The notes beneath the pieces are model-generated. The model saw nothing but the letters and a program-made list of their open reading frames with translations, did not search any database and was not told where the DNA came from. From the IMG/VR virus record IMGVR_UViG_3300024520_000066, positions 1,745 through 65,744 of that record: a stretch of DNA of 64,000 nt. One strand, given 5' to 3'. A program made the position numbers and the translations under genes. Every line of letters starts with the position of its first letter. The stretch's first letter is position 1. This document shows, in pieces, positions 3,846 through 57,112 of this stretch. This DNA comes from a virus (lineage: Duplodnaviria > Caudoviricetes).

Positions 3846-3915
3846 ATTAATACAACGTAGATGCGATGTTAAAGAAATTAATTTGGTGATTTGAATTAAT
3901 GTTATGTTATGCAAC

Positions 3916-25774: not shown

Positions 25775-28700
25775 TTAGTGTTGTGTATAAAATATTGTTA
25801 TGTCATGTAAAATTAATTTTTTGCCATCAGTGTTGTTAAATTGGAATTCAGCAAAGCCCCAAGCACTACGAACTCTTTCTCTTGTATTCCTTTGTCTAGG
25901 GAAGTTTATCTTCCAGTTTCTAAACTTTTTAAATACATTCTGTCTTAACACAAGTGGTACTAATCCAGAATCTTGATAATCATTATACACTCTAACACCA
26001 GTCAATCCTTCTAATGGTAGTTCAACACCATTCTTTGTCATTTCTAACTTATAAGATGCGCCATTAAGAATTATCTCATTTCCTTGTGGAGCAATATGTA
26101 GTGTAATAGAACTAGGATATGAAGTTCCATAAAAACTATTTGGATTTCCTTTAAAGTGTTCCCAAACAGATGTATTTGCTGGATTTGTTGATATAAGTAC
26201 AGATCCCTTATTTATGTACCAAGCAGGAACATAATCATAATAAGATACAAATGCACTTATTTTCTCATTAAACGACAATGTAAACTTATCATTTGACTGA
26301 ACGAATGAAAAGTAAACGTCTGAGTTTACAGGATTGTATCCTAACGATACACCATTATTTAATACAGGATTGTCTTGAACTAGTGATTCATAATCCATTC
26401 TGTTTAAAAGTTCATGGTGGAATCCCTGAGCATCTGACAATCTTCCAACCTTAGCCCCATCAAATACCATTATACCTCTGTTTATAAGATCTATGAAGTA
26501 AAATGCATTCTCTGAAGTTACAACACCCCATTTATTCAAACATCCAATTGTTGTGCTTTTGTATGTATAGTCATGTAATATTCCACCTGTTCCAAGCTCA
26601 AGAGAAACTCCATCATTTCCAGGAACTTGTACTCTAGGATTAACAGCAATATGAGCTACAGCTGTATCTTGCAAGCAAAATATTTCATCTTTAAGATTTA
26701 CAACAGCGTTAATTGGCCCGTATTTTCCATCAAGATCCATTGTCTCATTCTCTAAGAAATCAGTCCAAGAGTCTATAAATTCTCCAGGTATTTTTTCTTT
26801 TGAAGCCATTAATCTTCCGTCAAATTCCTGAATCTTCTTAACCTTAGACCCTAGCCCAACAGATTTAAGTAATGTTGGTTGTTGAGAATAAACTCTATTA
26901 TATTCTTGATATTCTTCATATCTAGGTTGCCATCTATTGTCCCAGTCTCCTAATGAAAGGTCGTTTCTATTTTTTAAATCTACACTAGTCTCTACTCTTA
27001 TTGATACTATTTCAGCAAGTAGATTGACATCCACACTTTGTATTTCAGTGTTGTCTTTTACTAATTTTGTAAATGTAAATGTATTTACAAATGTATCTCC
27101 GGGTGAATCCACAAATACAGATGTTGTATCAATATTTGTAAATAAACCTATCTCAATGTAACTTGAGTTTGATTTTGACTCATAAGACATACCTCCATAA
27201 ATACCACCAATGTATGGTGTATTTTTATCTTTAACAAACTCTGCTATCAATACACCATCATTTTGACCTGGCGCAGCTAACTGATGAATTTGCTCTATAC
27301 TTTTTCGAGAAGCTATTGGTGCTGTTTGTAAATCATCTCCTTCAGCAAATGTTATACATTTTGCTCCAATTGTATTGCAACCACTTATTCTTTGTTCTGC
27401 ATCTGTATTTACATCTTTAGACTCTACCCAATTATCCATACGCATTGTCTTAAGATTATTTGAGTATCTTAATTTAGCGTCATTATTATATCGTGTAAAA
27501 TCAGCTCCTTCTTGAGTAAGCTCTGGAGTTCCATATATTTCAAAGATTTTTTGTCCAGTTGAAGAATGAAAGGTTCCATTAAACTCTCTATAAACTTGAT
27601 GTCTAGCATGATGATTCTTATTATTAACAGGGCCAAAAAAACCATTATCCGATAAATAATTAGCGTTATTTATCATTGGTTGAGGAGTAACTCCTGGCGT
27701 CAATCCAGTTATACCATTTAAGAATTTTGCCGCAACACTATTTACTGAATTTACAGGATTTGTTTCTGTTGACCAACAAGCTACATAACTTTGTCTTATT
27801 AATCCAACTATGTTTAATTTATAACTTGCATCAATTGGGTTTTCTCTAAATAACACTTCAGGACTATAAAACTGCATAAGTCTATTGTGCTGGAAATTTT
27901 GCGCTCTCCAATCTTTAGGATCAGCAGCTTTAAATCCTTCATAATTCTTACCTTCTCCTAACTCAGGAAAACTTGAATTATTTTCACTATCCCAAGCTAA
28001 GCAATGGTAATCTTTACATTTTACAAATGGAACTATAGTTTGAAACATTCTAGTCATTGATGGAATTATATCTGGCTTAACTGATTTCTCATGGTTTACA
28101 GCATCAACCCTATCAGCTCTTGTTGCATACTTGGTTGTATGAACAAAATTTGCTACCATAGGATTTATGAATCCTTGAGCAAATATTGTTTGATCCACTA
28201 ATGTTCTATCAGCTCTTAATATCTTGTACCCAACAGGTTTGTCATCTTCAGATAAAAAATTACTTGAAGTATTAAGCCATGCATAAAATTCAGATGTTAA
28301 TGTAACGCGTAATTGATTATAGTTACCAGACACATTTCCTTCTGGAGCTTTTAAGTCCATTATCCATTTAGGATCTGATGTTTGTCCTCTTCTGTTGTAA
28401 AATTTAATACCTAATCTATATATTTCTCTATCTTTGAAAAATTGTAATTCCTCAGCAATATCATCAGATAATTGTGATTGAACTATTTCTACATTTACAT
28501 ATTTTCCACTAGCACCATAAGTAGATCCATTTAATTGATACTTATAAGTATCGTAATTTTTGTTTATAGAATCATGGTTTGGAGGAACAATAAAATCAGG
28601 AGATGTTACTGTTGTTGTAGTTCCGGTTACATTTCCACTAGAATTAACATAAGCTCCATTTAATATTTGACATAAACCACCAGCATTAAATGAATAAGCC

Positions 28701-29839
28701 CTCATATCAAGGTCTATCAAGAAATTACTTTCTGTTATATTAACAGGAAATAATCTATTATCTTTTGTTACTATGTGTTGTGGAACTATCGGATTAGAAC
28801 CAAGAAATATAAATGATTCTAATGAAATTTTCTCTTGACTAGTCCCATCATCTGTAATACTCATAGATACATAGTCATCTATCTGTTGATCTGTTACAAT
28901 TGATATTTCAGGATTTTCATTAAGAGATGTGTATTTTATAGAATACAGCTTAATATTAGTAAATTTAGGGTCTATATTTGGTATTGAAATCTGAACTGAT
29001 TTACCAAGAACTTCATTCACTGCTCCTCCACCGAGTCCATCACCCTTGTCTATTGGAACCAATTCAGATACAGGAGATACAGTAGTTTGCGCTCCATTAA
29101 GTATGTAAAGACCATAAGCGTATTGAACCATGCCAGACGTATGACTTCCACCAGCAATCACTCCATCTATAACTGGTTGCGATAATACAAATGTACTTAC
29201 AGTATCAATTGAACTTGCACTTAAGTCAATAAGATTGTCCCTATCTCCATTTACTGTACTTTGGCGTATGTTGAAGAATCTTAATTGATGTTTGCCATCA
29301 ACAAAATATATTTTTTGTATAATTGAGTTTTCGTAATTAAATAAAACCTGAACTAGGTTATTTTTTGACAAACCTAAATTATTCATGTATAGCAACTCTA
29401 AATCAAATGAACCATTATTTAGGTTTTTCAGTTCCCAGAAACAATCAAATCCAGCATCATCAGTTGTTATTATTAATGCAGAATCTCTAAGTTCTTTTGT
29501 TCCTATGATTATCTGTTGTCCAGATGTATTGAATGAAGCTCCATTCCAATATGTTGATTCAAGCTCACAACCAGGAACACTAGATTCTTTTCTATTGTAT
29601 TTCAAAGATCTTGCTGTTGTTCCAACCGTGTAGTCAATAGTAGTTGTTGTGCTGTTTATCGAAGGAGTAGGGATAGTGAACACTAGTTCATTGCCTACCT
29701 CATTTGTTACAGCAAATGAACTTTTTTGATCTGTTGCTAATATGCGTATATTTTTCGCGTCAAAATACTTGTCAGACTGTAAATCTGCAGACAAGTCTTT
29801 GGACATACCAGAGTAATTAACTTCATGTTTTTTTATCAT
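25775..29839 (-). CDS. tail stabilization/muzzle protein (P22 gp10-like, crAss-like)
   Basis: 1354 aa, beta-rich; C-terminal DSWTDFLENETMDLDGKYGPI and KKFRNWKINFPR segments; synteny after ring and IHF genes. Confidence 0.75.
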   Translation of the reverse strand: MIKKHEVNYSGMSKDLSADLQSDKYFDAKNIRILATDQKSSFAVTNEVGNELVFTIPTPSINSTTTTIDYTVGTTARSLKYNRKESSVPGCELESTYWNGASFNTSGQQIIIGTKELRDSALIITTDDAGFDCFWELKNLNNGSFDLELLYMNNLGLSKNNLVQVLFNYENSIIQKIYFVDGKHQLRFFNIRQSTVNGDRDNLIDLSASSIDTVSTFVLSQPVIDGVIAGGSHTSGMVQYAYGLYILNGAQTTVSPVSELVPIDKGDGLGGGAVNEVLGKSVQISIPNIDPKFTNIKLYSIKYTSLNENPEISIVTDQQIDDYVSMSITDDGTSQEKISLESFIFLGSNPIVPQHIVTKDNRLFPVNITESNFLIDLDMRAYSFNAGGLCQILNGAYVNSSGNVTGTTTTVTSPDFIVPPNHDSINKNYDTYKYQLNGSTYGASGKYVNVEIVQSQLSDDIAEELQFFKDREIYRLGIKFYNRRGQTSDPKWIMDLKAPEGNVSGNYNQLRVTLTSEFYAWLNTSSNFLSEDDKPVGYKILRADRTLVDQTIFAQGFINPMVANFVHTTKYATRADRVDAVNHEKSVKPDIIPSMTRMFQTIVPFVKCKDYHCLAWDSENNSSFPELGEGKNYEGFKAADPKDWRAQNFQHNRLMQFYSPEVLFRENPIDASYKLNIVGLIRQSYVACWSTETNPVNSVNSVAAKFLNGITGLTPGVTPQPMINNANYLSDNGFFGPVNNKNHHARHQVYREFNGTFHSSTGQKIFEIYGTPELTQEGADFTRYNNDAKLRYSNNLKTMRMDNWVESKDVNTDAEQRISGCNTIGAKCITFAEGDDLQTAPIASRKSIEQIHQLAAPGQNDGVLIAEFVKDKNTPYIGGIYGGMSYESKSNSSYIEIGLFTNIDTTSVFVDSPGDTFVNTFTFTKLVKDNTEIQSVDVNLLAEIVSIRVETSVDLKNRNDLSLGDWDNRWQPRYEEYQEYNRVYSQQPTLLKSVGLGSKVKKIQEFDGRLMASKEKIPGEFIDSWTDFLENETMDLDGKYGPINAVVNLKDEIFCLQDTAVAHIAVNPRVQVPGNDGVSLELGTGGILHDYTYKSTTIGCLNKWGVVTSENAFYFIDLINRGIMVFDGAKVGRLSDAQGFHHELLNRMDYESLVQDNPVLNNGVSLGYNPVNSDVYFSFVQSNDKFTLSFNEKISAFVSYYDYVPAWYINKGSVLISTNPANTSVWEHFKGNPNSFYGTSYPSSITLHIAPQGNEIILNGASYKLEMTKNGVELPLEGLTGVRVYNDYQDSGLVPLVLRQNVFKKFRNWKINFPRQRNTRERVRSAWGFAEFQFNNTDGKKLILHDITIFYTQH

Positions 29840-30546
29840 TACTGTATCCTCATTTGTTCCTGAGCGCCTAAGAATTCAAATCTTCTTTTAAATTCTGTTG
29901 TACTAGGAAGTATTTGTGTAATCATGTTTGTTAAAGTCTCCATTTCATCTTGAGATGGCATCTTTAATCTTGAGTCTGCTTGACCAACATTGAACATATA
30001 ATCAACCTCAGCTTTGTTTAATTTTCTATCTGATATCATATCCATGTCATTCATTATGTCATACCATTTCCATTTGATGTAAGACTCAATACATCTTAAC
30101 AGTGTTTCATCATCTAATACAAGAGGATAGCATTCTTCATCTACAGCTATTGCTTTGTATATTATATCAATAGTGCCTGTCTCAAAATTAACACTTACAT
30201 ACTTACTGTTTAGTGAATAAGTGTAATCCCTTCTGCTAGGGGTAGAACCCCCAGCATGAAAGAATTCCTGAGATATATCTTCACTTGAAGATAATGCTAT
30301 TGGACGACCAGTATCTGTTCTAGATATACCGTCTATTTTTATCATATCAATAGGCTTAAGTGTACGGAAATTAACAACATTTAACCTCTCTCTTTTTATT
30401 ACATAGATAGAAGGCGCATCAAGTATTCTTAATACTTGAATTGCATTGTCAACAATAAACTCATAGTTTAAATCCTTCATTATAGGATTTCTCATCAACC
30501 TATCAGCTACCATTTTAATACTAACTAAATTCCCTGTACTTGCCAT
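29839..30546 (-). CDS. tail ring / tail tubular protein
   Basis: 235 aa, ends in the ring-protein-like YKAIAVDEECYPLV; crAss synteny. Confidence 0.65.
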   Translation of the reverse strand: MASTGNLVSIKMVADRLMRNPIMKDLNYEFIVDNAIQVLRILDAPSIYVIKRERLNVVNFRTLKPIDMIKIDGISRTDTGRPIALSSSEDISQEFFHAGGSTPSRRDYTYSLNSKYVSVNFETGTIDIIYKAIAVDEECYPLVLDDETLLRCIESYIKWKWYDIMNDMDMISDRKLNKAEVDYMFNVGQADSRLKMPSQDEMETLTNMITQILPSTTEFKRRFEFLGAQEQMRIQ

Positions 30547-30552
30547 AATTTT

Positions 30553-31071
30553 TTATCTTAAAAAGGCATCAATCTTTCCTGCAAATATTGCCTGAGATAA
30601 TTGACGCTTTAATTGTCTATTGAAACGAATTTTATAAATGCTCTTATTTTTGTAATTAGCTTTAGATCTTCTGTAAAAAATCCTGAAGGTGTGTCCCTCA
30701 GTATGTTCATTAGTATATCTTATTTTTGTTTTTTTCCGTCTAGCACTTTCACTTTTAGCCCAAAGTTCCCTTGAGGCTTTCCAATTGATAGGAAGGTTAT
30801 TTATTATGTTCCCATCATTATCTATCTTGACTTCCTTTTTTACTTTTCTTAATTCAATTTTACCGGTTCGGCATGGCATAAAATATTCAGCTCCTTTGGT
30901 TGAAATCCTGTCCCTAACAAAGCCATTAAACTCTCTCATTATTTTACCGAACAAAACTCTAGATATTTCCGTATGGCCAGTGGTTTTTATGAAATGATTA
31001 TAATAATCACCACTACCAAAATCTGCTGTTATACGATGAATTCTTTTATCTTCTTCCATCAGCAGCGTCAT
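30553..31071 (-). CDS. IHF/HU-like DNA-binding protein (crAss-like); start may be 31059
   Basis: Basic protein, MPCRTGKIELRK and YKIRFNRQLKRQL segments; synteny between ring genes. Confidence 0.65.
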   Translation of the reverse strand: MTLLMEEDKRIHRITADFGSGDYYNHFIKTTGHTEISRVLFGKIMREFNGFVRDRISTKGAEYFMPCRTGKIELRKVKKEVKIDNDGNIINNLPINWKASRELWAKSESARRKKTKIRYTNEHTEGHTFRIFYRRSKANYKNKSIYKIRFNRQLKRQLSQAIFAGKIDAFLR

Positions 31072-31717
31072 TATCTTTATCTACGGGAATAGCCATAGCT
31101 CTTATCATGTCTTTTACAACTAAATCAACAACTGTATCAGCCATTGCTGATTCAATTGGATAATCAACATCCCAAGCTTCTTTAGTTGAATCTACTCCAC
31201 AAACTAGTTCTCTTGCAACATCTGGAGACTCAAAAACATCAGTTACTTTTATTTGTTTAAGAAACCTATGCTTATTATCTTTTGATATCAAGAATAATTT
31301 TCCATTGAAATCAATGGAACAATACGTTAAGTGTTGTGTGAATTTATTTTCAAACAAGAAAGGTAATCTTTCTAAAGCAACTGGATTTATAGCCAGTGCA
31401 GTGCCATCATATAATCTAACATTTAATGGGCCTTCTTTTCCTTTTATTCTAATTGATCTAGGAATAGTAACTGTAGATGCTAATATTTTACCAGCGCAAG
31501 AATAGCCGTCAACTTTGTCAATTAACTCCAATGGAACACAAAGCTCTTGCTTTACTTCTCTTGGTAGGTACCATCCATTTGTTGCGTACTGTTGTTTTAA
31601 CAACATTGCTCTCTTTGTGTCTATAAGACTTGAAACCAAATCCTCACTGACATTGGTATCATCAGTAAGGATGTTCAACTTCTCAAAAACTGTATAGATT
31701 ATTTCTCTCTTGGTCAT
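31046..31717 (-). CDS. tail ring protein
   Basis: ATG at 31717 (MTKREIIY) avoids overlap with the upstream gene; similar size to the other ring proteins. Confidence 0.6.
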   Translation of the reverse strand: MTKREIIYTVFEKLNILTDDTNVSEDLVSSLIDTKRAMLLKQQYATNGWYLPREVKQELCVPLELIDKVDGYSCAGKILASTVTIPRSIRIKGKEGPLNVRLYDGTALAINPVALERLPFLFENKFTQHLTYCSIDFNGKLFLISKDNKHRFLKQIKVTDVFESPDVARELVCGVDSTKEAWDVDYPIESAMADTVVDLVVKDMIRAMAIPVDKDNDAADGRR

Positions 31718-36805: not shown

Positions 36806-37546
36806 TTAAACCCTAGAATCAAGCGTCATTCTTGCTTGTAATGTTCCGTCTCTATAATCTAAGACTGCATTCTCTACGGCTATATTAATTATATCTCTAT
36901 GCGCTAATTCTGCTAATTTACATGTAGCTTGAGCTGTTTTACCTTGAATTGATAATCCAAGTCCTGCTACATCACTTGTCAATGTAAGATCTCCAACTAT
37001 AATTGGAGAAGGATACGCAATGTACCTTAAATTATATCGTGAAAGATTCTCTTCTGAGACTATTTCCACGGTAGTTTTTGAATTCTGTTTAGAAAGATCC
37101 ACTCGCCAAGCTTTATTTTTATTAGGCTTCCTAAATGGGTTTCTATAACTTATCATGAACTCATCATGTGTAGTTGGGATAACCGGAATTACTTTCCCGT
37201 GTATTGCCAGATTAGTCGGATTGTTTATTGTTGCAGTCTCTAATACAATATACATTGCAGTAGTACTGATTTCAAAAAACTTAGATTCACTCACAAGCCC
37301 TCTAGTTGAGCTGACTTGTGAGGTTATCTTTTCATCCTTTACTAATTCGTTAAGTACCCTTCTTGCTTTCTCATTAAGTTCAAAAGAAGAAGTTGGATCC
37401 TTGGTGGCATCATACATGTTCTTAACATATTGCTCTTGAGCAATCGTAAGATACGAACTAATTTCAAATGTATCTAATCCTGGCGCTCCTTCAAGAGCGT
37501 TATTGTATCTTAGATTAAACTCTTCTTTTAGTTCTGATGCAGTCAT
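36806..37546 (-). CDS. tail ring protein (crAss-like)
   Basis: EFNLRYNN...APGLDTFEISSYLTIAQEQYV N-terminus; second gene after the MCP. Confidence 0.7.
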   Translation of the reverse strand: MTASELKEEFNLRYNNALEGAPGLDTFEISSYLTIAQEQYVKNMYDATKDPTSSFELNEKARRVLNELVKDEKITSQVSSTRGLVSESKFFEISTTAMYIVLETATINNPTNLAIHGKVIPVIPTTHDEFMISYRNPFRKPNKNKAWRVDLSKQNSKTTVEIVSEENLSRYNLRYIAYPSPIIVGDLTLTSDVAGLGLSIQGKTAQATCKLAELAHRDIINIAVENAVLDYRDGTLQARMTLDSRV

Positions 37547-51333: not shown

Positions 51334-54111
51334 TTATCCTTGCGCGTTTGTTGATGCTGTAAAAGCAAATGGTACATTAACAACATTACCAGTACCTTGC
51401 TCAAAAACCACTTCTGTTATAATACAACTTATATCTGCTGATGTTTCTCCTTGACCAGAAGTAGAAATACTTTCAACATCTAAATAATATTTAAATTGGT
51501 CTGTACTGATATGCAATAATTCAACATTTACAGAAAAATTTTCTGTACCATTGATACTTTTATTATAAACAACTGTGTTATTTTTATAAATAGTTAATAC
51601 AGCTCTACTATTACCACCGTTTGCATGATTAACAACCACTATATTTATAGTATGTTTTAACCTTAAAATAAAATCTGTTGGAAGCAAAGGCGTAATTACT
51701 AAAGTATCTTCTATAGTTTCCGCTTGCCCATCTGCATCACTGTTAGTTATTAATGTGATGTTATTTTTAGAAAAACTATAATCTAAAACCCTAATAACTT
51801 CTACAACATCACTAGCTGTTAAACCACCATTATCTGTTACTGTTATTTGAAATTGCCAAATATTACCAGTCATGTTTGTAATATTAGTTGCTAATAACGT
51901 TGGACTCGATACCACCGCTGCACCTTGTATTACTTGCCAAATACGAGAAACAATAAAGCCATCTGGATCACTTTCTGTAGCTAATAAATTTGTGGTATTT
52001 GCATTATCTGAAATTGAAAAATCTGGTCCCGCATAAACTACAGGCGGTATATTATTTGCAATAGCTACATTATAAAAAGATTCACTATAAAAAGCTTTTG
52101 TAATACCTTGTGTTATATTCCACTCTAAATTTAATGGATACCAGATTCTAGAACCATTAAATTTATAATCTATTAATTGACTAAATTTAAATAAGCCATT
52201 AAACTCACCTTCTATATTATAGTGCGCTTGTTTATGTAATGCTAAATAAATAGAAGCTAATACCTCGCCATAACGTTTTGCAGTAATAGGATATACAGCA
52301 TCACCCCAATTTTGCCATGTTGTTCTATCTACGTTTGGATGATAGATGTTTTTTACATTAACACGTATTACATCATTATCATCTATAACAAAACCTAAAG
52401 CATTTGCATCATAACTAAATACAAATTGCTCACCATTAAAATAATTATAAACAACTTCAACATCTGTTAAGGCGATATAAGCACCAACACCATTTTGCTG
52501 CACTTCAACATTATTACTATTATCTTTTATAGTGATGATTTCCTCTAGGCTAACTTGTATTAAATTTTTACCTAAAGATTGAAATATATATATAGGGTTG
52601 ATTATTTTTACATGATTAAGTGCATTAAGTTCATTAAGTTGCTCTAACCTTATAACATTTGTATAATTACCAACCGCATCTGTTAAATCTAAATCTATAT
52701 CTTTTACTGAAGAAAAAGAACCCTCGTTTACAGCAGTAAACAACTCATCAATTTCATCATTTATTTTTTTAAAGGTGATGTTTTTAAATAAAAAACCTGA
52801 TGCTTTATTTAATAAATAATTGTATGCAGGTTGATAAAATTTAATATCTAAATACCCATTATTTTCTACAATAAATTCAATTTGAATTTCTGCGTTTCTA
52901 GTATTATCAAAATCGAATCTATAATCCGGACCTTTACTATTAGAAAATATAACCGTATCATTAATTAAAACTTCATATTTTAATAAATTATACCAGGATC
53001 CGTTACTTGAAAAAGTTTCGTTATCTGCTGCTGTTATTGTTAAATCATAAAGCAACTCTAAAGCAAAAGTAGCTTCAAATTTTGATCCAGCTAATACATA
53101 AGGCTTACGTTTTAAACTGATAAAATTTAAAGGATTTTCAGCAGCTAAACTTGTAAATATTTTTACAGCATTATCAGAGGTGTTTACTTGCGCAAAATAG
53201 CCATTGTTTTCAATCCAATGTCTGCTTTTAAAATAAGCGTTTTCATTATTTACATCTACCCAACCATCACTAACTTCTTTATAAAGCTGGCTTTCCCAAT
53301 AAAAAGAACTATTGGTTTGGGCCACTTCAACCTGTTTTAATGGTGCTGTTATACTAATTAAAGGCGTTGCATAAGCAACAACACTGGTGTAATTTCTAGT
53401 TACCGCTATATCTTCTATAAAATTACCTAGATAATTATATTTACTTAATGTGTAAACACTTAAAGCCCGCTTATTATAACCTACTACATAAAACTCACCA
53501 TCTTCTTGATAAACTGTACACCCAATATTTTTTAAAACTAATTCTAAAATACCGTAAGCCGATTTCTTTTTCCCTGAAGATGATTTAAAAATAGAAGTGT
53601 CTAACCATTTAGTTTCCCAACTAGGTTCGGCTAAATTTACTAAAGCAGGTGTGAAATAAAAATTAGTATTTAAACCTGTTAACTCTAAGCATTTTGCTAT
53701 TATTTCTATAATAGTATGCTCATTAGTGTAAAAAGATTCTGGTAAAAAATACCCTTTTAAAGATGCTAAACCACAATTAGCTTCAAATTGAATAAAAAGC
53801 ACACCATTTGTATATGGTTCTTTATATTGATCTGGTATAATAAAACCCTTCCATAAAATAATATTAGTATCTTCATCTACCAATTCTACTTTATATCTAC
53901 GCTCATCATTAGTGTATAAGTGTACAAAATGCGCATCAGAACGAATAGGTGCTAACATTGAATAATTTAAAGCAGAACCTATGATGTTTTTATCCTTATC
54001 ATCTCCACCAAAATACTTTAAAGAAATGGTGTTATTTTCTGCAGCTTCTAAAATAGTTACAGCGTTTAAATCTTGCGTGTCGTATATTTTAATTGCATAG
54101 TTTAGTTCCAT
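51334..54111 (-). CDS. siphovirus tail tip/hub protein with PKD-like domain
   Basis: 925 aa, coupled to the tape measure (TAATG); NIPPVVYAGPD...SDPDGFIVS PKD-like motif. Confidence 0.65.
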   Translation of the reverse strand: MELNYAIKIYDTQDLNAVTILEAAENNTISLKYFGGDDKDKNIIGSALNYSMLAPIRSDAHFVHLYTNDERRYKVELVDEDTNIILWKGFIIPDQYKEPYTNGVLFIQFEANCGLASLKGYFLPESFYTNEHTIIEIIAKCLELTGLNTNFYFTPALVNLAEPSWETKWLDTSIFKSSSGKKKSAYGILELVLKNIGCTVYQEDGEFYVVGYNKRALSVYTLSKYNYLGNFIEDIAVTRNYTSVVAYATPLISITAPLKQVEVAQTNSSFYWESQLYKEVSDGWVDVNNENAYFKSRHWIENNGYFAQVNTSDNAVKIFTSLAAENPLNFISLKRKPYVLAGSKFEATFALELLYDLTITAADNETFSSNGSWYNLLKYEVLINDTVIFSNSKGPDYRFDFDNTRNAEIQIEFIVENNGYLDIKFYQPAYNYLLNKASGFLFKNITFKKINDEIDELFTAVNEGSFSSVKDIDLDLTDAVGNYTNVIRLEQLNELNALNHVKIINPIYIFQSLGKNLIQVSLEEIITIKDNSNNVEVQQNGVGAYIALTDVEVVYNYFNGEQFVFSYDANALGFVIDDNDVIRVNVKNIYHPNVDRTTWQNWGDAVYPITAKRYGEVLASIYLALHKQAHYNIEGEFNGLFKFSQLIDYKFNGSRIWYPLNLEWNITQGITKAFYSESFYNVAIANNIPPVVYAGPDFSISDNANTTNLLATESDPDGFIVSRIWQVIQGAAVVSSPTLLATNITNMTGNIWQFQITVTDNGGLTASDVVEVIRVLDYSFSKNNITLITNSDADGQAETIEDTLVITPLLPTDFILRLKHTINIVVVNHANGGNSRAVLTIYKNNTVVYNKSINGTENFSVNVELLHISTDQFKYYLDVESISTSGQGETSADISCIITEVVFEQGTGNVVNVPFAFTASTNAQG

Positions 54112-56225
54112 TACGATTGCCTTAATTGTTCTTTTAAACTACGCTCATAACTTATTACAATATCGCTACCACGTAAAACTGTTTGAGGGATAAATACCTG
54201 TGGCTGCGAACTACCCTCACCCATTAAACCATATAACTTTTTTTGTTGCGCCTGGTTTAAAACCAACTCGCCAGAATTTACACGCGCTAATATTTTATCT
54301 CCAAAAAAAGAAGAACCACCAACTACACCACCATCTGCAAAAGCAGGTAAATTACCACCACCTCCAAAATTAGATGCTAAACCTTTTAACAAACTACCTA
54401 CCACTACCAAACCAACACCAGCCGCTATAGCAGCCAAAGGATTTGTAAAAGATAGTTTTACAGCCTTCATTGTAATACCTATTTTTATAGCTGCTTTTCC
54501 TAACTGTGTAGCTAAATCTCCTAGGGTAGATAAAAGCAAACCACCTACCGCACCAAAACCAATATTACCCTGCGCTATACCAGCTATAACATTAGCAAAA
54601 CCATCAATAAAACTATTACCAATGTTTTGTAATATACCTGAAGAAGCATCTTGAAAATCTAACAACCTAGATTGAAATGCGATTAAATTTGCATCTATTA
54701 TTTCATTCTCAACGGGCAAAGATTCTGAAATACCAGCTAAAGGTGATGTTGTTAAAACTGTACCACCTTGCGCTAAACCCGTTGTGTTTAAAGCAGATAC
54801 TTGTTTACGACCTGTTAACCCTTGTTTTTTAGCTTTTTCAATTGCGTTGGTTATTGCTGAAGCATCTACATTTTCTTCTAAAAAAGCTATTTTTTTTCGT
54901 TGTGTAACATTATCAATAGCATCGTTAAAATTTTTATCAATACCATTAGTTAAATTTTTCCAGTCGTTACTAATATTATCTGTAAAAGTTGAAAAATTAC
55001 TAAAACCCTCTGAACTTGCTTTTTTAATGATAGCTGGCAACTCTGAAATATTACCAGTAAGCACTGCTTTAAAAACACTTCCTATAGTTTTAAAACCAGT
55101 TACAAAATTATCTACAAAACCTTGAATGATGCTTTTAAGGGCTTCAAAAGCAAATTTACCTATCTCAAAAAGGTTTTTAAATTGCTGCACAACCAACTCA
55201 ACTGCAGTTCTAAAAAGAGTGCTTTCATTATATAAATCAATAAAATAGTTTGCTATATTTATTAAGGTTTGTTTTATAGGTGCCCAATTTTTATAAATTA
55301 CAACACCAACCGCTGTTAAACCGGCTACTATTAACCCTATTGGCCCCGTAAGTAATGCTAAACCTGTACCAATTGCCGGTAATATAGTTCCTGCCAATGC
55401 TAATAATGGACCAATAGCAGCGGCAACACCACCGAGTATTACGATCCATTTTTTGGTTTCTGGAGATAGCGATTGAAATCTTTGCAAAATACCATTTAAG
55501 CTTTCAAATAAAGGGGTTATATATGGAATAATAATATCTCCAATAGATGCAAAAGCTTGTTGAATATTATCGCGCAAGGTACTCATCCTACCACTAAAAG
55601 TATTTGCTTGTCGCTCTATGCTTCCTGCAAAATTAGTATTACCTATGTTTTGTAAGTATTGCGAAATTTCTTCCGAATTTTTTTTAACAGTAGTTGTTAC
55701 TCCTTGAAACGTAAAAGAAACATTATCGCCTTGCGATTTTGCTTTAATACCAAACTCTTTTAAACGCTCGAACTCACCTACTGCAGCATCAGCTACAGCT
55801 TCAATCATTTGGTCTAAACTTTTACCTAATGCGCTTGCTGTATTACCATAACTTGTTAGTGATGCTATTGATGGATCTAAACCTAAGTTTTTTAATTTTA
55901 TAAAAGCACTTGCAACTTCTTCCATTTGAAATGGGGTTGTAGCTGCAAATTCTTTTATTTGAGCAAAAGCAGAAGATGAAGATGCCGAATTACCTTGAAA
56001 AACCGTATCTAAAGAAGTTTTAAGAGTTTCCATATCAGCAGCAGCACTTATAGCTTGCGCACCTATACCCAATAAAGGCAATGTTACACCAATACTTAAA
56101 CCTGCACCAATTTTTTGCATACCAGCACCTACTTTAGTTAACTGCCTATTAGCGTTATCCATTTGGGTGCTAAAGCTTTTTAAATCGGCTTTAAATAGAA
56201 TATTTATTTGACTTAAACTTGCCCT
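54111..56225 (-). CDS. tail tape measure protein; proposed non-canonical AGG start at 56225 (first in-frame ATG at 56162)
   Basis: FAATTPFQMEEV and AVADAAVGEFERLKEFGI tape-measure motifs; frame is open 21 codons upstream of the ATG: TGA-AGG-GCA-AGT-TTA... = (M)ASLSQINILFKADLKSFSTQMDNA. Confidence 0.85.
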   Translation of the reverse strand, partial: RASLSQINILFKADLKSFSTQMDNANRQLTKVGAGMQKIGAGLSIGVTLPLLGIGAQAISAAADMETLKTSLDTVFQGNSASSSSAFAQIKEFAATTPFQMEEVASAFIKLKNLGLDPSIASLTSYGNTASALGKSLDQMIEAVADAAVGEFERLKEFGIKAKSQGDNVSFTFQGVTTTVKKNSEEISQYLQNIGNTNFAGSIERQANTFSGRMSTLRDNIQQAFASIGDIIIPYITPLFESLNGILQRFQSLSPETKKWIVILGGVAAAIGPLLALAGTILPAIGTGLALLTGPIGLIVAGLTAVGVVIYKNWAPIKQTLINIANYFIDLYNESTLFRTAVELVVQQFKNLFEIGKFAFEALKSIIQGFVDNFVTGFKTIGSVFKAVLTGNISELPAIIKKASSEGFSNFSTFTDNISNDWKNLTNGIDKNFNDAIDNVTQRKKIAFLEENVDASAITNAIEKAKKQGLTGRKQVSALNTTGLAQGGTVLTTSPLAGISESLPVENEIIDANLIAFQSRLLDFQDASSGILQNIGNSFIDGFANVIAGIAQGNIGFGAVGGLLLSTLGDLATQLGKAAIKIGITMKAVKLSFTNPLAAIAAGVGLVVVGSLLKGLASNFGGGGNLPAFADGGVVGGSSFFGDKILARVNSGELVLNQAQQKKLYGLMGEGSSQPQVFIPQTVLRGSDIVISYERSLKEQLRQS

Positions 56226-56265
56226 TCAGTTTTGGTTTTAGGATTAATACTTTATCTTTACTTTT

Positions 56266-56358
56266 ATGATTGAATGGTATTACATTCCTGCTTTTATTAT
56301 TATTGGTTTTTTAGGATTTGTTTTTAACGACTACATCCGTAAGAACCGTTTTAAGTAG
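56266..56358 (+). CDS. 30-aa single-pass membrane peptide, antisense to the tail operon (moron-like)
   Basis: MIEWYYIPAFIIIGFLGFVFNDYIRKNRFK*; weak TATCTTTA -7-like element at 56253-56260. Confidence 0.5.
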   Translation: MIEWYYIPAFIIIGFLGFVFNDYIRKNRFK

Positions 56359-56430
56359 CGTTGGTAGGATTCGAACCTACGACCTCGAGAAAAGGATTCT
56401 CGCGAGCTAACCAAACTGCTCTACAACGCG
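56356..56430 (-). tRNA. initiator (fMet)-like tRNA with CCU anticodon
   Basis: CGCGTTG TA GAGC AGTTTGGTTA GCTC G CGAGA ATCCTTT TCTCG AGGTC GTAGG TTCGAAT CCTAC CAACGCT A; full cloverleaf, C1xU72 mismatch, A11-U24, no encoded CCA. Confidence 0.88.
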
Positions 56431-56774
56431 ATTTTATTTTTTTTATCTAAGGCATCAAATTCGGCTTTAAGTTGCTCTTGTGTTTTTTTAGGTTGTTTTA
56501 AATCTTTTTTCTCCCAATCAAAAGGATACCATTTTTCTACGGTTAAATTTTTATCTTTAGATTCAAAATTAAAAGCTGATGTAAAAGCTATTAATCTTAT
56601 TTGTGTCCATTTTTCTCGTTTTTTGGTTTCATAACCTCTGGTTATATTATCTAATTGCCGCCAATCTAAAGAATCAAAAGTTTTAATAGTTAACCCAATT
56701 TCTCCACAAACAAAGGCTTCTAAATCATCGAACGTTAGCGAAGTATTATTTACTCCGCTTGGTTCGACTTTCCC
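56421..56774 (-). CDS. -1 frameshift extension of the tail assembly chaperone (lambda gpGT-like)
   Basis: Open -1 frame from the slippery site: VEPSGVNNTSLTFDDLEAFVCGEIGL...WTQIRLIAF...WYPFDWE...KIAL*. Confidence 0.8.
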   Translation of the reverse strand, partial: GKVEPSGVNNTSLTFDDLEAFVCGEIGLTIKTFDSLDWRQLDNITRGYETKKREKWTQIRLIAFTSAFNFESKDKNLTVEKWYPFDWEKKDLKQPKKTQEQLKAEFDALDKKNKIAL

Positions 56775-57112
56775 ACAGCTTGGGTATCTTCTTCTGTATT
56801 TGGTTGTGCGCCTTTAAAAACATCAAACATAGGTTGCAATATAGATTCGCCATTTATGTTTAAATGATCTACAATATCATCCGGATCTATGTTAATAGAT
56901 TTTTTACTTGCTGCACGAATGGCACTTAAAATAAATACACCAATAACTTCTTGACTTTCTAAAGTGCCAGCATCTATAACCGCAATCTTTTTTTGAAAGT
57001 CTGCTATAAGTTTGAGTTTATAATGATTCATAAACTCCCTCTGAAACTTAATTCCAAATCTAAATGGATATTCTTTATTAAATAAAATAATACTTTTTGC
57101 TGTGGTACTCAT
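56750..57112 (-). CDS. tail assembly chaperone (gpG-like)
   Basis: 120 aa between the tail tube and tape measure genes, with slippery site. Confidence 0.8.
   Translation of the reverse strand: MSTTAKSIILFNKEYPFRFGIKFQREFMNHYKLKLIADFQKKIAVIDAGTLESQEVIGVFILSAIRAASKKSINIDPDDIVDHLNINGESILQPMFDVFKGAQPNTEEDTQAVGKSNQAE
56768..56774 (-). other. programmed -1 frameshift slippery site GGGAAAG
   Basis: G GGA AAG near the 3' end of the chaperone gene; same heptamer as lambda G-T. Confidence 0.85.

Follow-up and report, generated by a model that had tools for sequence, protein, structure and literature searches.

A candidate private start codon for the tail tape measure gene of a marine phage

To our knowledge, all bacteria and their viruses are held to initiate translation at AUG, GUG or UUG with one and the same methionine initiator tRNA, and we know of initiators with altered anticodons solely as laboratory tools. 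Some phages recode a stop codon by means of their own suppressor tRNA; as at the locus described here, a phage tRNA then alters the reading of one codon in late structural genes, but these systems act in elongation, at stop codons and in many genes, whereas the present case concerns initiation at a sense codon in one gene. Engineered E. coli initiators with mutated anticodons (CUA amber, GAC, AAC and others) start at the complementary non-AUG codon (available parts of PMC11744186 and 10.1101/2021.05.25.445580), and likewise combine an initiator body with an altered anticodon, the new anticodon setting the amino acid. Such initiators are laboratory-made and retain the three G-C pairs as well as A37/A38, whereas the tRNA considered here is natural and phage-encoded, appears to serve one gene, has the anticodon CCU (GCU in relatives), and carries a remodelled anticodon arm (G30-C40 only; U37 and U38). 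With bacterial tRNA-fMet it has in common the 1:72 mismatch, purine11:pyrimidine24, A73, G2-C71, C3-G70 and the variable loop AGGUC, but it is without CAU and the run of three G-C pairs, and has U37. No natural non-CAU initiator tRNA was found in the literature searched, which was that outside subscription journals.

The window, that is, the whole 64,000-nt stretch of DNA analysed, is part of a 65,744-bp phage genome. Its features are collected in Table 1. The reading preferred here, to which a probability of roughly 0.8 was assigned, is that an initiator-derived CCU tRNA starts the tape measure gene at AGG, acting in trans as a second initiator owned by the phage. The tRNA would have arisen from a Flavobacteriaceae-type initiator by the anticodon change CAU to CCU, would be excised from the late transcript and charged, and would then enter the ribosomal P site on AGG, for the tape measure gene alone.

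Table 1. Coordinates of the features in the window, with the basis of each assignment
Feature	Coordinates	Strand	Basis
Tape measure gene of the tail; 704 codons counted from AGG, then stop	54111..56225	-	Pfam TMP_3, tblastn, homologues
First ATG of tape measure frame (codon 22), rival start	56160..56162	-	Where a gene caller would begin the gene
AGG, proposed tape measure start codon	56223..56225	-	Aligns with homologue ATG/GTG starts
In-frame TGA directly before AGG	56226..56228	-	Sequence reading
Hydrophobic ORF, 30 codons, within the spacer between tRNA and AGG	56266..56358	+	Opposite strand
Initiator-type phage tRNA, anticodon CCU	56355..56430	-	ARAGORN, Rfam, feature table, cloverleaf covariation
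T frame of G/GT chaperone, 130 codons	56421..56774	-	Start-less; reached via slip site
gpG-like tail assembly chaperone ORF, 120 aa, ATG start	56750..57112	-	Position and slip site
GGGAAAG slippery heptamer, -1 shift into T frame	56768..56774	-	Sequence reading

A single tRNA was called by ARAGORN in the window (anticodon CCT at 56395-56393), and no other was found in the 65,744-bp genome; it scored 52.6 bits against the Rfam tRNA model (cut-off 29), and its gene is without a CCA end. As an initial annotation of the sequence had described, the acceptor end has C1xU72 unpaired, followed by G2-C71 and C3-G70, with A73 as discriminator, and the D stem (GAGC/GCTC) contains A11-U24. Two initiator traits are thus present, the unpaired 1:72 (a formylation determinant that also bars elongation) and purine11:pyrimidine24, and the corresponding elongator traits (paired 1:72, pyrimidine11:purine24) are absent. 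Two further initiator traits are missing: the three consecutive G-C pairs (29-41, 30-40, 31-39) are cut to one in the anticodon stem CGAGA/UCUCG (au/GC/au, G30-C40 kept), and the CAU anticodon is replaced by CCU. The anticodon loop reads AUCCUUU, with U37 and U38, and the variable loop AGGUC; U at position 37 is unusual in any tRNA.

The 704-codon tape measure frame is intact, and its product matched Pfam TMP_3 (PF20155) marginally (41.1 bits, cut-off 41, residues 57-229), a domain carried by most of the 120 listed tape measure homologues; tblastn matches of the protein landed on genes annotated as tape measure, and 5094 homologues were obtained at E <= 1e-20. The frame opens after the TGA with AGG GCA AGT TTA AGT CAA ATA AAT ATT (xASLSQINILFKADLKSFSTQ), and its first ATG lies 21 codons further on, both as first annotated; the 3' end of the tRNA is 129 nt away from AGG. 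With the TGA read as Trp, the frame ran back a mere four codons, to a TAA, and gained no ATG. The nearest homologue among the matches listed (P0001; 85% identity over 296 columns; ATG start) begins MASLSQINILFKADLKSF, so that AGG occupies the start codon of the family, and the suggestion in the initial annotation that M-ASLSQINI is the usual N-terminus proved correct. Met at this conserved N-terminus was called as the start in 107 of the 120 listed homologues, many of them with M-A-S/G-L. The same annotation had named, as an outcome that would speak against its proposal, homologues that start at the MDNA Met with nothing conserved upstream; homologues instead align through residue 2 of the AGG-started protein, with ATG (L001, L004, L007, L008/9, L481, L482) or GTG (L003, L005/6) at the AGG position.

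Tape measure loci (245) were scanned for the codon at this position and for upstream tRNAs, and in 50 rows the alignment reached residue 10 or earlier. A canonical start and no tRNA were found in 42 rows. In the other 8 (four distinct places), no ATG, GTG or TTG lay in the interval from the upstream stop to the N-terminus, and every one had, upstream and on the same strand, a tRNA whose anticodon complements the first codon; no additional tRNAs were found by ARAGORN in the 245 loci. The four places comprise a prophage in genome G491 (L483), with an AGG start and a CCU tRNA, and L002, L399 and L400, with an AGC start and a GCU tRNA. With the window included, anticodon and codon match in 5/5 loci, AGG/CCU twice and AGC/GCU three times. 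The matched changes CAU>CCU and ATG>AGG that had first been suspected therefore have counterparts at all related tRNA-bearing loci, no tRNA stands beside canonical starts, and in the alignment of N-termini that had been proposed as a check the codon tracks both the presence of the tRNA and its anticodon. Since the five loci are related, this covariation may come down to only two changes (ATG>AGG and AGG>AGC). In the tree (quick method, SH-aLRT support only), 10 of 15 'non-ATG' rows were inferred solely from truncated gene calls. The phage collection held no DNA-level relatives of this region, the GCU-arm pattern occurred in viral contigs in the L002 contig only, and the metagenome scan gave no further CCU/GCU members among the matches listed; a search for the GCU/CCU family gave 3 matches in 401 genomes of the family of G001 and 2 in 101 genomes of its genus.

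The window is probably a seawater metagenome assembly as opposed to a cultured phage, a change of ATG to AGG takes one mutation, and P0001, the nearest relative among the matches listed, starts with ATG. On these grounds AGG could be a sequencing or assembly mistake, or a mutation that inactivated the gene of a defective or dead-end phage, with the tRNA unrelated to it. This explanation was judged very improbable: four further loci have a non-canonical codon at the same position, each accompanied by the matching tRNA, and the tape measure frames of these relatives (454-763 codons, that of L399 ending at the contig edge) are intact, as is that of the window. An assembly slip is excluded. A 13,060-nt contig from run X1, possibly the source sample, had zero differences from the window, and a 174-nt contig from run X4 (depth 2.7; different year and study), spanning 56120-56293, has TGA and AGG unchanged, with no differences listed there; as AGG is also present in this independent low-depth contig, it is not an assembly error.

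For comparison with host tRNAs, the 52 tRNAs of G491, in which the L483 prophage resides, were used. Overall identity was tried as a criterion and set aside; it placed the host initiator top for the window and L400 only, with tRNA-Pro and tRNA-Thr within 1-3 points of it, and ranking above it for L483, L002 and L399. Positional features were used instead, since overall identity was not decisive. Only two of the 52 combined the 1:72 mismatch with purine11:pyrimidine24: the prophage tRNA, and the host initiator with its C1xU72, A11-U24 and GGG/CCC; all 50 elongators had pyrimidine11:purine24, and none had a 1:72 mismatch. All five phage tRNAs have a 1:72 mismatch, purine11:pyrimidine24 and A73. 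The mismatched bases vary among them (C.U three times, A.C once, C.A once), as do the 11-24 pair (A11-U24 in the window and L400; G11-C24 in L483, L002 and L399) and the anticodon stem (au/GC/au in the window and L483; cg/GC/au in L002, L399 and L400), and G30-C40 is invariant in the 6/6 aligned tRNAs. The cloverleaf is maintained by compensatory changes, with 120/120 cells paired, compensatory changes in 10/20 pairs, and 0/500 shuffles equal. The GCU tRNAs of L002, L399 and L400 are 73-76 nt long with the 5-nt variable loop AGGUC and no long arm, and are therefore not class II serine tRNAs; the Ser(GCU) tRNAs of G491 are 85 and 88 nt. A pattern scan of viral contigs gave 21 ARAGORN tRNA-Met(CAU) calls, of which only a few had initiator-like features.

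These comparisons bear on the possibility that the CCU tRNA is an ordinary codon-supplement tRNA-Arg, with the protein made from ATG 56162 or, by the host initiator, from ATA (codon 7) or ATT (codon 9), both possible weak starts, and with the AGG match due to coincidence or hitch-hiking. AGG makes up 81 of the 690 Arg codons in the long ORFs of the phage, and this use inside genes is compatible with an elongator role. In addition, internal Met codons were chosen by gene callers in 13 of the 120 listed homologues, which begin at the Met22 equivalent or later. The tRNA-Arg determinants C35, U/G36 and A/G73, given in Table 1 of PMC9976931 (as far as available), are present in the window tRNA, C35 and U36 also counting as ArgRS determinants in favour of this explanation, and an E. 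coli initiator re-engineered to carry CCU is described as working 'quite poorly' in vitro (available part of PMC11744186). However, A20, described in the accessible text of PMC9976931 as the main bacterial ArgRS determinant, is absent: the tRNAs of the window, L002, L399 and L400 have U at position 20 and that of L483 has C, whereas the host Arg tRNAs have A20, among them G491's own tRNA-Arg(CCU). Against an elongator also stand the 1:72 mismatch with purine11:pyrimidine24, found in 0/50 G491 elongators, and the anticodon following the codon in 5/5 loci, including AGC/GCU with a non-serine tRNA. Initiation at the internal ATG is opposed by the 20 codons after AGG, which are under protein-level constraint (5-9 synonymous and 4-10 non-synonymous changes per 20 for codons 2-21, pairwise among the five loci, with no stop), and by the frame stop 0-4 codons upstream of AGN in the AGN-start loci (n = 5). 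On balance this explanation was considered improbable, if less so than a mutation or error.

Spacers between tRNA and start in the five loci measured 27, 28, 94, 129 (window) and 1181 nt, and the tRNA of L002 is separated from AGC by two ORFs with ATG starts, of which one encodes an AntA/KilAC antirepressor. The spacer is an insertion hot spot; its 30-codon ORF in the window probably lies outside the tRNA/AGG system. A tRNA-shaped element acting in cis in the mRNA, as an IRES-like mimic of tRNA and codon with no free charged tRNA, would fit the placement of tRNA and gene on one strand, the lack of a terminator-like site between them in our scan, and the spacers of merely 27-28 nt in L483 and L400. 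Such an element is hardly likely, given spacing from 27 to 1181 nt, two whole genes intervening in L002, and conservation of cloverleaf, acceptor stem and discriminator with compensatory changes, as for a processed and charged tRNA. We propose that the variation in spacing and the intervening L002 genes favour action in trans, as in the preferred reading of a second initiator.

Positions -2/-1 before the start were GA (in the window, the last two bases of TGA) in 5/5 AGN loci and 0/8 canonical-start loci; ATG starts here, too, are often preceded by A at -1, which leaves G at -2 as the one distinctive base. U37/U38 of the tRNA could pair with this conserved GA (the L399 tRNA has A38), and these putative fourth and fifth base pairs may compensate for the lost flanking G-C pairs. 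In a described quadruplet pairing (available part of PMC10018350), tRNA position 37 pairs with mRNA position -1, the A37U variant included. The two cases would be alike in that the nucleotide flanking the anticodon on its 3' side pairs with the one just ahead of the start codon, and the A37U variant of that study preferred mRNAs with the complementary base; here, by contrast, U37 and U38 are natural and lie opposite a conserved GA, a putative pairing suggested by five loci.

Initiation at AGG is what we infer from the sequence comparisons above. Formylation of the phage tRNA would be expected from the 1:72 mismatch and purine11:pyrimidine24, and IF2-dependent binding in the P site is suggested by the way the anticodon covaries with the start-position codon. 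As a first guess the amino acid would be Arg, since A73, G2-C71, C3-G70, C35 and U36 are bacterial Arg determinants (with A20 missing). Charging with Met is possible, among the phage tRNAs, for the CCU tRNAs only; mischarging of tRNA-Arg(CCU) by E. coli MetRS, which the initial annotation had cited, is repeated in a review (PMC9976931, as far as available). No complete synthetase identity set is present in the window tRNA, which is without A20 for ArgRS and without CAU for MetRS. This incomplete identity was counted against initiation at AGG, together with the reduction of three G-C pairs to one, U37, and the poor CCU construct; the middle G-C pair of the anticodon stem was sufficient in E. 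coli according to the accessible part of PMC5389676.

A wider reading, to which we give somewhat less than an even chance, is that tailed phages of marine Flavobacteriaceae own a re-programmable private start, the anticodon drifting CAU > CCU > GCU with the first codon of one essential virion gene. The P site would be held by a five-base-pair helix (U38 U37 and anticodon against GA and AGN) and not by three G-C pairs, the start would be non-Met, probably formyl-arginine, and the cassette would often be gained, lost and exchanged among close relatives. Initiator-like tRNAs with anticodon GAC, found at no fewer than 28 metagenome loci (>=28), would be the same invention elsewhere; no convincing GTC start was found near them in pieces of <=14 kb, and megablast of one such locus against the phage collection gave no match. 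As to benefit, our leading guess, weakly held, is that a protein of which each tail needs few copies is thereby made at a fixed low level or in dependence on the tRNA. Timing, stoichiometry and resistance to hijacking, which the initial annotation had suggested, may also play a part; escape from tRNA-fMet nucleases, likewise suggested there, fits poorly, since one gene alone uses the codon.

If the preferred reading is true, start-codon identity is evolvable and can be privatised by a mobile element, and a class of mis-called phage genes is accounted for (13/120 listed homologues, about 21 or more residues short). The locus would also offer ready-made orthogonal initiation parts for Bacteroidota ribosomes, which use no Shine-Dalgarno pairing. 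It would serve, too, as a natural experiment on what an initiator requires, with the 1:72 mismatch and G30-C40 retained but A37 and the G-C pairs on either side lost. It would raise the question of what a phage gains from tying one structural gene to its own initiator.

Promoter-like sites were at chance level (the scan model excludes Bacteroidota promoters). Upstream of the tRNA, the gpG-like ORF gave no Pfam match, and the arrangement typical of a G/GT chaperone is present, with a heptamer near the end of G leading into a start-less T frame upstream of the tape measure gene; GGGAAAG is presumably the same heptamer as in lambda G/GT. The last codons of the T frame and its TAG stop (56423-56421) fall within tRNA nucleotides 1-10, an overlap repeated in L002, L399, L400 and L483. 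That the other head-tail genes start with ATG, as initially annotated, held for the remaining long ORFs of the block, in which no more than a few codons lie between the previous stop and an ATG, but not for the T frame, from which ATG is absent. Further AGG starts were sought in all stop-to-stop frames of >=80 codons in the whole genome. Two frames with AGG at codon 3 (genome positions 36807-37454 and 27519-31619) have a plausible ATG at codons 24 and 13, respectively, and were rejected for want of evidence. The only other frame with AGG first and no ATG was the chaperone T frame, which needs no AGG start, since the GGGAAAG slip accounts for its opening.

The window spans positions 1745-65744 of one 65,744-bp virus record, whose G+C content is 32.8%. 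Its tape measure frame opens 129 nt downstream of the tRNA gene, where a TGA is followed by AGG GCA AGT TTA (AGG at 56225-56223, minus strand), and its first ATG lies 21 codons after the AGG. The product matches Pfam TMP_3 at the cut-off (41.1 vs 41 bits), and in named phages its homologues carry a tape measure annotation. Its first 260 residues were used as the query of a protein search, which returned 5094 proteins at E ≤ 1e-20, and the best 120 of these 5094 were examined. The conserved N-terminal Met is the called start in 107 of the 120 listed homologues, many of them reading M-A-S/G-L-(S/A)-x-I-N-I, and the nearest, P0001, reads MASLSQINILFKADLKSF and agrees with the window after residue 1. 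In the other 13, the called start is a Met aligned with window codon 22 or one further downstream, as is expected of a gene caller if the true start is not ATG, GTG or TTG. In related viral contigs, the AGG aligns with ATG (L001, L004, L007, L008/9) or GTG (L003, L005/6), with a stop codon 0-10 codons upstream of these canonical starts. As judged from these alignments, AGG occupies the start-codon position of the family, and P0001 bears out the M-ASLSQINI N-terminus that the initial annotation had given as usual. Among sequencing-run contigs matching the window, that of X1 (perhaps the source sample) matches in full, that of X4 (another year and study, depth only 2.7) spans TGA-AGG with no change listed there, and over the tRNA those of X3 and X5 show no change.

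All 245 tape measure loci fetched were surveyed, giving 50 rows with an alignment reaching residue 10 or earlier. Eight rows, from four places, had no canonical start, and each of the eight was preceded, on the same strand, by a complementary tRNA; the other 42 started canonically and lacked a tRNA. No further tRNA was detected by ARAGORN in any of the 245 loci. A prophage (L483) in the complete 4.1-Mb bacterial genome G491 reads TGA AGG GCC, preceded at a distance of 27 nt by a CCU tRNA whose anticodon loop, AUCCUUU, is that of the window. AGC stands at the start position, with a GCU tRNA upstream, in a 30.8-kb viral contig (L002; tRNA of 73 nt, at the chaperone T-frame end), a Bacteroidota MAG contig (L399) and a 240-kb contig of an Allomuricauda MAG of the same genus as G491 (L400). 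Including the window, codon and anticodon match in five of five places (AGG/CCU, AGC/GCU), which is the covariation that the proposed pairing called for; the places are related, and independent changes may be as few as two (ATG to AGG, AGG to AGC). In these five loci, an in-frame stop precedes the AGG or AGC by 0-4 codons. Codons 2-21 contain no stop and keep the motif I-x-I-(R/L)-F-x-x-D-L-x-x-F-S; of these 20 codons, 5-9 differ synonymously and 4-10 non-synonymously between loci, and the segment from AGG to the first ATG appears to be translated.

The window tRNA scores 52.6 bits with the Rfam tRNA model (cut-off 29), and the initiator-type features first described alongside its CCU anticodon are all present: an acceptor stem CGCGUUG/CAACGCU with C1 and U72 unpaired, followed by G2-C71 and C3-G70, a D stem GAGC/GCUC (A11-U24) and discriminator A73. 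Its variable loop is AGGUC, its anticodon stem CGAGA/UCUCG and its anticodon loop A-U-CCU-U-U. For comparison, all 52 tRNAs of G491 were used, of which only the host initiator (CGCGGGG...CCCCGCU-A; C1xU72, A11-U24, GGG/CCC) and the prophage tRNA combine an unpaired 1:72 with purine11:pyrimidine24, all 50 elongators having a paired 1:72 and pyrimidine11:purine24. Unpaired 1:72, purine11:pyrimidine24 and A73 are common to all five phage tRNAs, and the mismatch (C.U three times, A.C, C.A) is kept while the bases differ, suggesting that non-pairing itself is selected. Given their 5-nt variable loop, the GCU tRNAs are not serine tRNAs. When the five phage tRNAs and the host initiator were aligned as cloverleafs, pairing held in 120/120 cells with both-side changes in 10/20 pairs, a result reached by none of 500 shuffles. 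By these comparisons, the phage tRNAs are of initiator type and under selection as tRNAs. Their three-G-C run is not kept (au/GC/au or cg/GC/au), and G30-C40 is invariant in the six aligned tRNAs; Shetty et al. (PMC5389676) report for E. coli that the middle G-C pair, and in a specific context even G30 by itself, is both sufficient and essential.

The window tRNA is flanked by two tail genes. The 120-codon ORF upstream and an ATG-less frame opened by its heptamer are read as a G/GT-type tail chaperone made via a -1 slip, and the TAG of the window T frame falls within tRNA nucleotides 8-10. In each of the five loci the T frame runs into the 5' part of the tRNA, where its last codons and its stop lie, so that tRNA excision would deprive the GT message of its stop codon. 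The tRNA-to-start spacers measure 27, 28, 94, 129 and 1181 nt, and a length that differs in every locus makes the spacer look like an insertion hot spot. This range, together with the two ORFs within the L002 spacer, speaks against an IRES-like fixed fold in cis that sets the start at AGG or AGC; the phage tRNA would act in trans.

Features of the window and of the loci compared with it
Feature	Location	Strand	Remarks
tRNA, anticodon CCT	56355-56430	-	sole tRNA in window
ORF, 120 codons	56750-57112	-	upstream of tRNA; with GGGAAAG heptamer
GGGAAAG heptamer	56768-56774	-	opens 130-codon frame without any ATG
Hydrophobic 30-codon ORF (MIEWYYIPAF...)	56266-56358	+	in tRNA-to-AGG spacer; stop overlaps tRNA 3' end
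T-frame end inside tRNA	window 56421-56430; L002:1744-1753; L399:3768-3777; L400:3833-3852; L483 near 3870-3890		
Two ATG-start ORFs	L002:1852-2992		between tRNA and tape measure; 136 aa without Pfam match, 245-aa AntA/KilAC antirepressor
tRNA(GAC), initiator-type body	L213:8458-8532; L269; L266; L200:2073-2146; L202:457-530; about 25 more		C1xA72, GAGC/GCUC, AGGUC
U37 U38 tRNAs, C1xU72, initiator-type body	L220:1047 region (UAC); L236, L250 (GAC)		
U37 U38 tRNAs with CAU	L201; L205; L217		L201 at least: paired U1-A72
11 tRNA genes within about 1 kb	L499 (G491:C1:2620270-2621265)		Flagellimonas-type genome

The bases before the start are GA in all five AGG or AGC loci and in none of eight canonical-start relatives, and the phage tRNAs carry U37 (five of five) and U38 (four). 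Initiator position 37 is reported to pair with mRNA -1, with A37U among the initiators tested (Höllerer and Jeschek, PMC10018350). Taken together, U37:A(-1) and U38.G(-2) could possibly lengthen the helix to five pairs, within the limits that A at -1 is common here anyway and that L399 has A38. As to the amino acid, Table 1 of a review (PMC9976931) gives the bacterial Arg determinants as A/G73, G2-C71, C3-G70, A20, C35 and U/G36, all of which the phage tRNAs carry except A20, a base present in the tRNA-Arg(CCU) that G491 itself encodes. The review also states, as the initial annotation had, that E. coli MetRS mischarges tRNA-Arg(CCU) via the anticodon. Arg would fit both CCU and GCU, and Met CCU only.

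Very probably, the phage starts its tape measure protein at AGG with an initiator-type tRNA of its own, the proposed tRNA(CCU)/AGG pair being supported on comparative grounds by the codon-anticodon matches, the initiator features and the family start position. This reading is weakened by the poor performance of an engineered CCU initiator in E. coli (PMC11744186), the broken three-G-C rule, the use of AGG as an internal codon (81/690 Arg codons), and possible weak starts at codons 7 (ATA) and 9 (ATT). A full-text literature search found engineered non-AUG initiators and no natural one.

A quick tree was built from 81 rows with the first 30 residues removed; the rows were the window, L400, the 76 nearer homologues of the 120 listed and those of the remainder that were short-called. 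It placed the window as sister to ATG-start P0001 (SH-aLRT 97). With the label 'non-ATG' given to 5 verified rows and 10 inferred from short gene calls, the tree required 11 changes of state, of which well-supported branches force at least 8. Some proteins that are almost identical are in different states, P0034 having ATG (M-ASFADISI) and P0076 and P0065 being called from a later Met, from either a very recent start-type switch or a contig-edge effect. Since the tRNAs are homologous and at one site, the arrangement is read as having arisen once and then been exchanged or repeatedly lost.

A widespread initiator-like phage tRNA(GAC), characterised by C1xA72 or C1xU72, by A11-U24 and by a UUGACUU loop, came up in pattern scans of metagenomes (at least 28 loci) and of viral contigs (2); no GTC start was found near it in the contig pieces examined. 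Several of these contigs are titled human gut metagenome, and in several different contigs the tRNA is directly followed by a small ORF that starts with MEILNLIIKQKFFDEIL or a similar sequence. U37 U38 may mark a broader group of initiator-like tRNAs in phages. The tRNA sequences of L499 are atypical relative to the host's other copies, suggesting a tRNA array of another mobile element.
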